From: Escherichia coli
Lineage (GTDB): Bacteria > Pseudomonadota > Gammaproteobacteria > Enterobacterales > Enterobacteriaceae
Length of the DNA stretch: 64,000 nt
Assembly (NCBI RefSeq): GCF_003334305.1
Contig: NZ_QOWS01000008.1
Direction: 5' to 3' (one strand)
In this document: positions 48,911-56,249 of the stretch, in pieces
How the letters are laid out: each line of letters begins with the position of its first letter
Numbering within the stretch: the first letter of the stretch is position 1
Notes under the pieces: generated by a model
Database searches by the model: none
Seen by the model: the letters and a program-made list of their open reading frames with translations, nothing else
Told to the model about the DNA's origin: nothing
Position numbers and translations under genes: made by a program

Positions 48911-48938
48911 GTATGACGAATACTTAAAATCGTCATAC
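48911..48938 (+). promoter_or_regulatory. NikR operator in nikA promoter
   Basis: GTATGA-N16-TCATAC dyad (GTATGACGAATACTTAAAATCGTCATAC) 38 nt upstream of nikA start. Confidence 0.8.
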
Positions 48939-51494: not shown

Positions 51495-54298
<2,804 letters not shown>

Positions 54299-54329
54299 GT
54301 TATTTCTGAAACGAGGAAAGAAAAGATAT

Positions 54330-54362
54330 TAACTGAACTTAATTTATAAAATTAAGTTCAGT
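54330..54362. terminator. perfect 33-bp palindrome (15-bp stem, 3-nt loop), bidirectional terminator candidate between nikR and the hicB-like gene
   Basis: AACTGAACTTAATTT-ATA-AAATTAAGTTCAGTT read directly from sequence. Confidence 0.55.
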
Positions 54363-54417
54363 TGCATAGATAGATCCTGTAAAGGCAGATATTCTGCGTA
54401 ATGTACGCCGCTAAAAT

Positions 54418-54777
54418 TTATAAATGATTCAAACGCTCATTCAGTGTTTCAATAATATAGGTATTAACAGAGACTTGTTGCTGCGCAGCCGCATTATTAA
54501 GGCGTTCACTCAGCGATTCTGGATAGCGTAACGTAAAGGTCTTAATCTTTTCTGTACGCGCATACGGCTCAATACCCGCAGCTTTACAATCCTCAAGATA
54601 CTCTCGCAGGGAAAGTTCCCCTTCTTTTTGCAGCCCCTGAATGCTGTCAGAGACAAAATCACAATAACCTGACAAGCCCAGGAATTTGCCACGAAATGCA
54701 TTCAGTTCTGGCACGTAAGTGATAACTGCAGGTTGCCCGGCAATCTCCATAGAGTTTGGCGTCTTCAGTTTGATCAT
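54418..54777 (-). CDS. HicB-family antitoxin candidate with C-terminal ribbon-helix-helix DNA-binding tail
   Basis: 119-aa ORF; RHH-like C-terminus TFTLRYPESLSERLNNAAAQQQVSVNTYIIETLNERL; 4-nt ATGA overlap with upstream HicA-like ORF. Confidence 0.6.
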   Translation of the reverse strand: MIKLKTPNSMEIAGQPAVITYVPELNAFRGKFLGLSGYCDFVSDSIQGLQKEGELSLREYLEDCKAAGIEPYARTEKIKTFTLRYPESLSERLNNAAAQQQVSVNTYIIETLNERLNHL

Positions 54778-55049
54778 GGTTTTACCCCTATACTTAGTAA
54801 CCAGTCACGCACGCTTTCTACAGCGCCTTTATCGGTATCTGGCGACGGATGAGGCCGATGGAAACACGCAACGCTCATATTTAGTATGAACTTACAACGC
54901 GAACCTCTTCCTTCCTTAATTTCTCCGCCTAATGCTTTAACCAGTGACTCTATATCAGACCACTTGATCCCTTGAGGAACAGGAGTTTTAAATATTTGAT
55001 CCAATGTATTTTTTTGTTTCTTCCGTAAAGCCTGTACCTTGGTTCTCAT
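54774..55049 (-). CDS. HicA-family (YcfA-like) mRNA-interferase toxin candidate
   Basis: 91-aa basic ORF MRTKVQALRKKQKNTLDQIFKTPVPQGIKWSDIESLVKALGGEIKEGRGSRCKFILNMSVACFHRPHPSPDTDKGAVESVRDWLLSIGVKP with the conserved His-Pro core; toxin-first order typical of hicAB. Confidence 0.6.
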   Translation of the reverse strand: MRTKVQALRKKQKNTLDQIFKTPVPQGIKWSDIESLVKALGGEIKEGRGSRCKFILNMSVACFHRPHPSPDTDKGAVESVRDWLLSIGVKP

Positions 55050-55050
55050 G

Positions 55051-55102
55051 GCATGTCCTTATGACTTCACTTTATGACATCAATAGTATGACATCACAGT
55101 AT
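55051..55102 (-). promoter_or_regulatory. operator-like repeat cluster upstream of the hicA-like gene
   Basis: Direct repeats TATGACATCA (55062..55072 and 55077..55086) nested within inverted repeat ATGACTTCA ... TGAAGTCAA, directly 5' of the toxin start. Confidence 0.45.
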
Positions 55103-55121
55103 GAAGTCAAGTTTCCCTTCC

Positions 55122-56249
55122 TTACGCCATTGTCCCAATCGTCTTCCTGAATCGCAGCAGCGCGATGGTGAAAAACGCGCCGCCAATTGCCATCAGCGTC
55201 AGGAACTGCGGCCAGACGATTTCGAATCCGGCACCCCGGTAGAGAATGGCCTGCGCGAGGCTAACAAAGTGTGTCGTCGGCATGGTCAGCATAATGTCCT
55301 GCACCATCTGCGGCATACTTTCGCGCGGCGTGGATCCACCGGAAAGCATTTGCAGCGGCAGCAGCACCAGAATCACCAGCAGCCCCAGTTGCGGCATTGA
55401 ACGCGCTATCGTCCCCATAAAAATGCCGATTGACGTGGTGGCAAACAGACTGAGCGCCACGCCCAGCATAAACAGCGGGATCGAGCCTTCAATCGGTACA
55501 CCCAGCACGCCTTTCACCATCAGCACCAGTGATAATCCCGACACCACCAGCACCACCAGCCCCATCGACCAGACCTTTGCCATCATGATCTCAAACGGCG
55601 TTATCGGCATCACCAACAAGTGTTCCACCGTGCCGTGTTCACGCTCGCGGATCAGCGCCGATCCGGTCAATACAATCGCCAGCATGGTAATGTTGTTGAT
55701 GATTGCCATCACCCCGCCAAACCACGCGGGATCAAGGTTCGGGTTAAAGCGCATCCGGGTTTCCAGCGATACCAACGGTTCGCTGTTATCACGGTAGCGC
55801 GCGACAAAGCTGTTCACTTCACCGTTGATAATATTCTGGATATACCCATTGCCGGTAAATGCCTGGCTCATGCGCGTGGCATCGACGTTCACCTGAATAT
55901 CCGGCTGGCGTCCGGCGAGGACATCACGCTGAAAATTAGGCGGAATATTTATCGCAAAGGTATAACGCCCGGCGTCCAGTCCGGCATCCATCTCATCGGC
56001 GGTGATCATCTCCGGTGGCAAAAACCACGGGCGATAGAAGCTGTTAACGATCCGGTTCGATAACTGCGATTGATCCATATCGGCAATGGCGATCGGCGCG
56101 AGGTTCAACGATCCTGGCGTAACGGTCGCTGACGAATACACCGACACCGTAAACGAGAAGACAATCAGCGTCAGCATCGCTTTATCACCGAGCAGACTGC
56201 GCAACTCTTTGATACCCAGATTAAAAATATTGCGTAAATGGCGCATCAT
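55122..56249 (-). CDS. yhhJ: ABC-2 family transporter permease
   Basis: Membrane [34 protein letters not shown]; start taken at ATG 56249 overlapping rbbA stop (ATGA); the adjacent ATG 56246 is an alternative; ORF track extends to 56330. Confidence 0.9.

Follow-up and report, generated by a model that had tools for sequence, protein, structure and literature searches.

What is the function of the short repeats clustered directly upstream of a hicA-like toxin gene in Escherichia coli? They lie in a 64,000-nucleotide stretch of DNA, hereafter the window, that belongs to the E. coli chromosome and whose queried kilobase is 100% identical to strain ST2350. An earlier note on this DNA described two direct repeats framed by an inverted repeat in the gap between yhhJ and hicA, likened them to the sites bound by RHH-type antitoxins for autoregulation and added that they may also serve to terminate yhhJ. 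On the minus strand the gene order is rbbA-yhhJ, a 72-nt gap, hicA and hicB, with nikR convergent from the other side, 120 nt beyond hicB. The region is delimited by the following features:

54418 to 54777, minus strand: hicB, encoding a 119-aa antitoxin with a partial RNase-H-like N-terminus and a C-terminal Arc-like RHH domain.
54774 to 55049, minus strand: hicA, a HicA-family toxin gene encoding 91 aa (Pfam HicA_toxin and RefSeq WP_001259385.1).
55122 to 55124, minus strand: stop codon of yhhJ, right-hand edge of the hicAB cassette.

The gap of 72 bp given in the earlier note is correct, the yhhJ stop being at 55122-55124 and the hicA ATG at 55049-55047 on the minus strand. The stop codon of hicA and the start codon of hicB overlap in an ATGA (54774-54777), and the pair constitutes a compact bicistronic operon in which the toxin gene precedes the antitoxin gene. 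HicA matches Pfam HicA_toxin (PF07927, E 3.7e-9, residues 30-80) and is named HicA family toxin in RefSeq. HicB matches Pfam HicB (PF05534, E 3.5e-15) and has weak Arc/CopG RHH matches at residues 76-116. The NCBIfam models gave no match for either protein. Searches of PDB sequences, with single sequences and with profiles, returned no solved relative of HicA or HicB, only weak Arc/AmrZ matches; when the HicB family profile was compared with the RHH domains of Arc and AmrZ, it was the C-terminus that aligned (E 0.018). Since solved HicB relatives are not detectable by sequence, a fold comparison was needed. The AlphaFold2 model of HicB (pLDDT 83.5) has four strands and one helix, after which comes a C-terminal domain of two helices. 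Its top Foldseek matches are the solved HicB proteins 6g26 (B. pseudomallei), 4p7d (Y. pestis), 6u0i and 6hpb (both E. coli), with probabilities of 0.95-1.0 and E-values of only about 1e-2. With its hicA-hicB order and a HicB carrying a C-terminal RHH domain, the module is a class-4 hicAB in the scheme of Gerdes 2024 (PMC10865869).

The toxin has features of its own. In a by-eye alignment, for which the sequence of K-12 HicA was confirmed against 6hpb_A, the subfamily has an invariant GSR (R51) where K-12 HicA has GSNH (His23), the catalytic motif of canonical HicA. H64 and H67 of the HRPHP motif, within an invariant F-H-R-P-H-P (residues 49-68 region), do not vary either, and about 29 aa extend the N-terminus in a conserved manner. 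Alignment of the HicA family with K-12 HicA by hhalign yielded only a spurious 12-residue match. Judging from these residues, the catalytic residue may be shifted elsewhere in this subfamily, or the chemistry may be different.

Homology with hicAB-free E. coli genomes stops exactly at the yhhJ stop, and the 72-nt spacer is missing from these genomes; therefore, the spacer is part of the hicAB cassette. For instance, K-12 does not carry the present cassette, and its site is occupied by rhsB-yhhH-yhhI. On the other side, hicB and nikR converge, and the stretch that separates their stop codons contains a perfect 15-bp A/T-rich hairpin (AACTGAACTTAATTT-TAT-AAATTAAGTTCAGTT; 54331-54363, minus strand) with a T-rich tail, which may be a bidirectional terminator; homology with hicAB-free genomes ends near 54344, within this element. 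An Rfam search of positions 54200-55400 (E up to 1) found no match.

The 51-nt repeat string reported in the earlier note, ATGACTTCACTTTATGACATCAATAGTATGACATCACAGTATGAAGTCAAG, is present exactly on the plus strand, at 55061-55111; it thus lies about 10 nt to the right of the position assigned to it (55051-55102). Its direct repeats, two copies of TATGACATCA, occupy 55073-55082 and 55087-55096, and the outer inverted repeat is perfect over 8 bp (TGACTTCA at 55062-55069 and TGAAGTCA at 55102-55109). A fuller description is that of four TATGAnnTCA 10-mers, starting at 55060, 55073, 55087 and 55100 with a start-to-start spacing of 13, 14 and 13 bp, each of which holds the 8-bp near-palindrome TGAnnTCA. 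The inverted repeat was seen because the outermost boxes, O1 and O4, differ only by their inverted central dinucleotide. The boxes and the predicted expression signals around them are as follows, box numbers of the family referring to the layout shared by homologous loci:

55105 to 55110, minus strand: predicted -35 hexamer TTGACT from a consensus scan; family box 2 contains the same element.
55100 to 55109 (8-bp core 55102-55109), minus strand: box O1, TGACTTCATA, overlapping the predicted -35; equivalent to family box 2.
55087 to 55096, minus strand: box O2, TGATGTCATA, in the promoter spacer, its last two bases within the predicted -10.
55083 to 55088, minus strand: predicted -10 hexamer TACTAT from a consensus scan; the family consensus tAtaaT is found at the same place relative to box 3.
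55073 to 55082, minus strand: box O3, TGATGTCATA, directly after the predicted -10 and over the predicted start at about 55076; equivalent to family box 3.
55060 to 55069, minus strand: box O4, TGAAGTCATA, in 5'-UTR DNA and abutting the Shine-Dalgarno sequence; equivalent to family box 4.
55056 to 55060, minus strand: Shine-Dalgarno sequence AAGGA, 6 nt before the hicA ATG; the family has 'ggaa' at the same place.

Such a cluster is not random. Four of the five matches to TATGANNTCA on both strands of the 64-kb window are the boxes themselves. The motif TGANNTCA occurs 20 times in the 64 kb, and the presence of four copies within 50 bp has a Poisson probability of about 2.5e-9; none of 300 first-order Markov simulations produced a cluster larger than 2. 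The boxes also coincide with a predicted sigma-70 promoter on the coding strand of hicA, TTGACT-16-TACTAT, that matches the consensus at 9 of 12 positions; these hexamers are consensus matches only, the scanned region containing 3 such sites for 1.8 expected. If this promoter is the one in use, O1 to O4 cover its -35, its spacer and -10, its start site and the 5' UTR, respectively.

The arrangement is conserved far beyond E. coli. Homologues of HicB with 58-84% identity are found across Enterobacterales, and a genome scan gave 49 loci, 41 of them with a usable region upstream of hicA (HicB 58-100% identical). In these 41 loci, the density of TGANNTCA is 24.8 per kb over the 120 nt that precede hicA and 0.32 per kb outside them (about 78-fold), and TGACTTCA is present in 84 copies upstream of hicA against 2 elsewhere. 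An unbiased count of 8-mers ranked TGACTTCA/TGAAGTCA first: the pair was found at all 31 non-redundant loci, with 67 copies against 7, a 411-fold enrichment. Anchored on the most conserved box, the family layout reads tgacttca-N5-TTGACTTCA-about 17 nt-tAtaaTGACtTCA-N5-TGAnnTCA-ggaa-ATG, that is, two pairs of boxes with 13 bp within pairs and 26-27 bp between pairs. The box consensus is TGACTTCA/TGACGTCA; box 2 encloses the -35, the last base of the -10 is also the first of box 3, and the information content is zero upstream of box 1. The most conserved position is box 3, equivalent to O3.

The E. coli locus differs from this layout in a few respects. It has no family box 1 because no more than 12 nt separate O1 from the yhhJ stop that precedes it. 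O2, an additional box specific to Escherichia, is part of a 14-bp unit that is missing from another E. coli allele; Citrobacter sedlakii has a degenerate TGCTGTCA at the O2 position. In addition, O2 and O3 are TGATGTCA, with a central dinucleotide that differs from the one preferred in the family, a point that counts against an operator function.

The homologous loci are found in about 20 different upstream genomic contexts. Moreover, Salmonella IncFII plasmids that encode a 50%-identical HicB carry four perfect TGACGTCA boxes spaced by 13, 27 and 13 bp. Since so many contexts, including plasmids, carry the same boxes, the boxes travel with the cassette, in which HicB is the sole protein that binds DNA. 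Two loci, one from K. pneumoniae (L071) and one from a Y. frederiksenii plasmid (L072), have a lost or truncated hicA and upstream region and are uninformative on the boxes. The former, on pC17KP0052-1, is an orphan hicB (82% identical) beside nikR, with no hicA and no upstream boxes.

The boxes also vary together with the protein. The beta-strand of the RHH domain, KTFTLRY, is invariant in 28 of 28 aligned homologues and accompanies their TGAC-type boxes without change, and a profile alignment places T80, T82 and R84 of HicB, as a likeness to Arc, on Arc Q9, N11 and R13. These three Arc residues contact bases. More distant HicB relatives (30-45% identity), obtained by a search without word index, differ at the middle residue of this strand. 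Where T is kept, TGAC boxes are kept as well: the E. coli paralogue at flhA-yafL (RLTLRV) has four boxes TGACACCA/TGACGTCA in the same four-box geometry. Where it is replaced by N (FNLR, FNVR), as at four independent loci, the boxes are GTAC-centred palindromes (GGTACC, AGTACT) spaced by 13 bp, and by 13 then 27 bp at one of these loci. One locus with S at this position has GGTAT..ATACC boxes, again at 13 bp. This co-variation, read by eye on a handful of distant loci, suggests that the box core follows the beta-strand residue, as expected if the RHH domain of HicB reads the boxes, and would be hard to fit with a shared host factor. A hicA-hicB pair is also encoded in 49 Ralstonia phage records (L076 and 48 others); its HicB shares 42% identity with the present one and has the beta-strand KFVLRV.

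The operator-like architecture for an RHH antitoxin proposed in the earlier note appears well supported by comparative evidence: the overlap with the predicted promoter, the presence of the motif at 31 of 31 loci and in about 20 contexts, and its co-variation with the beta-strand. We consider it likely that the boxes are the promoter-operator of the hicA-hicB operon, at which HicB would repress its own synthesis. Characterized HicB proteins bind palindromic operators located over their own promoters (PMC11594946; PMC10865869), and HicB forms tetramers in the Y. pestis and B. pseudomallei structures (PMC11594946). We infer that HicB binds the boxes cooperatively and represses the operon, and that HicA modulates this binding. 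Each box would be a two-fold-symmetric site for one dimeric RHH domain of HicB, and the boxes of a 13-bp pair would be filled cooperatively, probably by the two RHH dimers of one HicB tetramer, as in the solved tetramers. A centre-to-centre spacing of 13 bp places neighbouring sites on different helical faces, which counts against a tetramer spanning a pair. Occupancy of the -35, the -10 and the start region would exclude RNA polymerase and lead to autorepression of hicAB. An excess of HicA would then weaken the hold of HicB on the DNA and relieve the repression, by analogy with characterized HicAB systems.

Several known systems resemble this one in part. HicA3-HicB3 of Y. pestis shares the hicA-then-hicB order, a HicB with a partial RNase-H N-terminus and a C-terminal RHH domain, and several palindromic operators that flank or overlap the -10 of a single upstream promoter; HicB3 (4p7d, 4p78) is also among the top fold matches of the present HicB. 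However, the two HicB proteins have no detectable sequence similarity (no PDB match, E up to 1), and hicA3 and hicB3 are 174 bp apart, whereas the genes of the present operon overlap by 4 nt. The Y. pestis operators, BS1 and BS2 (Bibi-Triki et al. 2014, as summarized in PMC11594946), are two 15-bp inverted repeats instead of four 8-bp boxes with a 13-bp phasing. The HicAB system of B. pseudomallei (6g26, 6g1n) is the best structural match (Foldseek probability 1.0), although the sequence identity is only about 10%. Its HicB is likewise an RHH protein; it forms a tetramer and is freed from DNA by excess HicA (PMC11594946). A single palindrome over the -10 is reported there, in contrast to the four boxes, in two 13-bp pairs, found here. 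HicAB of E. coli K-12 comes from the same species and the same toxin-antitoxin family, and its HicB represses through an inverted repeat (hicO), but it is a separate cassette, with a HicB of the helix-turn-helix instead of the RHH type and with two promoters, P1 and P2 (PMC10865869).

The proposed mode of binding also has counterparts among repressors that, unlike HicB, have no toxin-binding domain. In Arc, MetJ and omega, one RHH dimer binds each short palindromic or pseudopalindromic subsite, and repeated subsites lead to cooperative binding. For MetJ, the box is the 8-bp palindrome AGACGTCT, which closely resembles TGACGTCA. The subsites are spaced by 11 bp for Arc, 8 bp for MetJ and 7 bp for omega, compared with 13 bp for the hicAB boxes.

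We found no paper on this locus in literature searches with the motif, the protein accessions and the combination of yhhJ and hicA. A 2024 review lists operators for five systems only (Y. pestis HicB3, B. pseudomallei, E. coli K-12, S. meliloti and S. pneumoniae) and indicates that each HicB recognizes a different site (PMC11594946). Hence, the putative operator is most likely an element of a known type that is previously undescribed for this HicAB subfamily.

Could the boxes act at the RNA level instead? Transcripts reading through from rbbA-yhhJ would contain them and could fold as a hairpin, starting 12 nt after the yhhJ stop, that terminates or stabilizes the yhhJ 3' end. The minus-strand RNA from 55135 to 55040 is indeed stable (-31.1 kcal/mol, z -4.6; 200 shuffles gave no fold of equal stability). 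Nevertheless, its stem is A/U-rich with G-U pairs and is followed by AUAAGGACAUGCC, not by a U-tract, and a terminator scan does not report it. Most boxes of other genera are arranged as direct repeats, and the region there folds no better than shuffles (z +0.4 to -4.4). The spacer is hicAB cassette DNA that is missing wherever hicAB is missing; moreover, adjacent near-palindromic boxes give such a hairpin as an automatic by-product. The suggestion in the earlier note of a yhhJ terminator is therefore not upheld: the hairpin lacks a U-tract, is not called by the scan, is not conserved in other genera and lies in cassette DNA. An RNA-level role as the explanation of the boxes seems very improbable to us, and the hairpin may have a minor role in read-through transcripts. 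Another terminator-like stem, with GCGCGTTTTT, lies inside the yhhJ coding sequence (55181-55198, minus strand), 57 nt before the stop, and is probably a chance match.

The boxes could also be bound by a conserved Enterobacterales transcription factor of the host in place of HicB, one candidate being NikR, an RHH protein with GTATGA half-sites whose gene is located 120 nt beyond hicB. Two boxes do contain the half-site on the plus strand (55086-55091 and 55099-55104), but the dyad required for a NikR operator, GTATGA-N16-TCATAC, is absent from the boxes, and we rejected this candidate. The only match to this dyad in the window, at 48911-48938 upstream of nikA, is an exact NikR operator (GTATGACGAATACTTAAAATCGTCATAC) in front of the nik operon. 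The 8-bp core has variable flanks in other genera, and nikR is not a neighbour there; boxes are present on plasmids as well, and a shared host factor would not explain why the box core varies with the HicB beta-strand. To our knowledge, no enterobacterial regulator has the consensus TGACTTCA. The probability of a host factor as the main ligand appears as small as that of the RNA-level role. More improbable still is that local tandem duplication and promoter-like sequence gave rise to inert repeats without a regulatory role. O2 and O3, which are 14 bp apart, are the same 10-mer, and E. coli alleles differ by the gain or loss of a 14-bp unit, as replication slippage produces. Yet the motif and its spacing are kept down to about 43% protein identity, in unrelated contexts and on plasmids, and four boxes in 50 bp would arise by chance with a probability of the order of 1e-9.

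Of 5426 complete E. coli genomes, 2071 have the cassette at this site. About 1250 genomes, including O157:H7, O145 and O55:H7, have the four-box allele, that of O157:H7 being identical to the one in the window. A three-box allele, found in about 790 genomes (about 38% of hicAB carriers), is missing exactly one 14-bp unit, TGATGTCATACTAT, and retains a promoter-like TTGACT-16-TAAAGT. In the three-box genomes sampled, codon 2 of hicA is TAA (ATG-TAA) and HicB is identical; RefSeq annotates hicA of this allele as a 76-aa product from a CTG start. From its sequence, the three-box allele looks like one in which the toxin is inactivated and the antitoxin kept.

Premature stops or frameshifts in hicA also occur in other taxa (loci L006, L015, L023, L045 and L040). 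The gene is broken at codon 26 in a Citrobacter/Escherichia MAG, at codon 4 in Photorhabdus heterorhabditis, at codon 30 in Brenneria alni and at codons 29 and 62 in Enterobacteriaceae bacterium B14, and the boxes and hicB persist in these loci. Furthermore, some hicAB-free E. coli keep a relic of O1 next to yhhJ. E. coli HS-02 (L056) has no hicAB; the ISEc1 transposase gene yhhI is adjacent, and GGAAGGGAAACTTGACTTCATATTGTG after the yhhJ stop is an O1 relic. This relic indicates that one breakpoint of the event that replaced the cassette fell within the operator.

E. coli strains can also harbour a second hicAB (flhA-hicA-hicB-yafL; L057 and L075), whose HicB is 43-45% identical and whose promoter has the four-box layout, built from pairs of the form TGACACCA-N5-TGACGTCA. 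It is conceivable that each of the two HicB paralogues recognizes the boxes of the other. A joint reading of these data, possible but in our opinion rather doubtful, is that residue 82 of HicB (T versus N or S) sets the box core (TGAC versus GTAC) with the phasing fixed, and that E. coli retunes or repurposes the system through the number of boxes. As parts of this reading, the 13-bp (and 26-27-bp) phasing is constant from E. coli to distant metagenomic relatives, and the rule may be general to a large clade of HicB proteins with RHH domains; in three-box strains, HicB may be a toxin-less regulator acting on a rebuilt promoter, and cross-talk with the flhA-yafL hicAB (TGACGTCA/TGACACCA boxes) may be possible.

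These data provide a testable operator, with a defined motif, number of sites, spacing and position relative to the promoter, for a widespread and unstudied HicAB subfamily. Among complete E. coli genomes, about 38% have a member of it, O157:H7 being one of them, and it also occurs in Citrobacter, Serratia, Pectobacterium, Photorhabdus, Xenorhabdus and Pantoea as well as on Salmonella IncFII plasmids. The three-box and four-box alleles can be viewed as a natural experiment on operator dosage and toxin loss. The general understanding of toxin-antitoxin regulation is unchanged by these results, which are of interest chiefly for the clean motif, for the 13-bp phasing and for the co-variation of the boxes with the beta-strand of the antitoxin.
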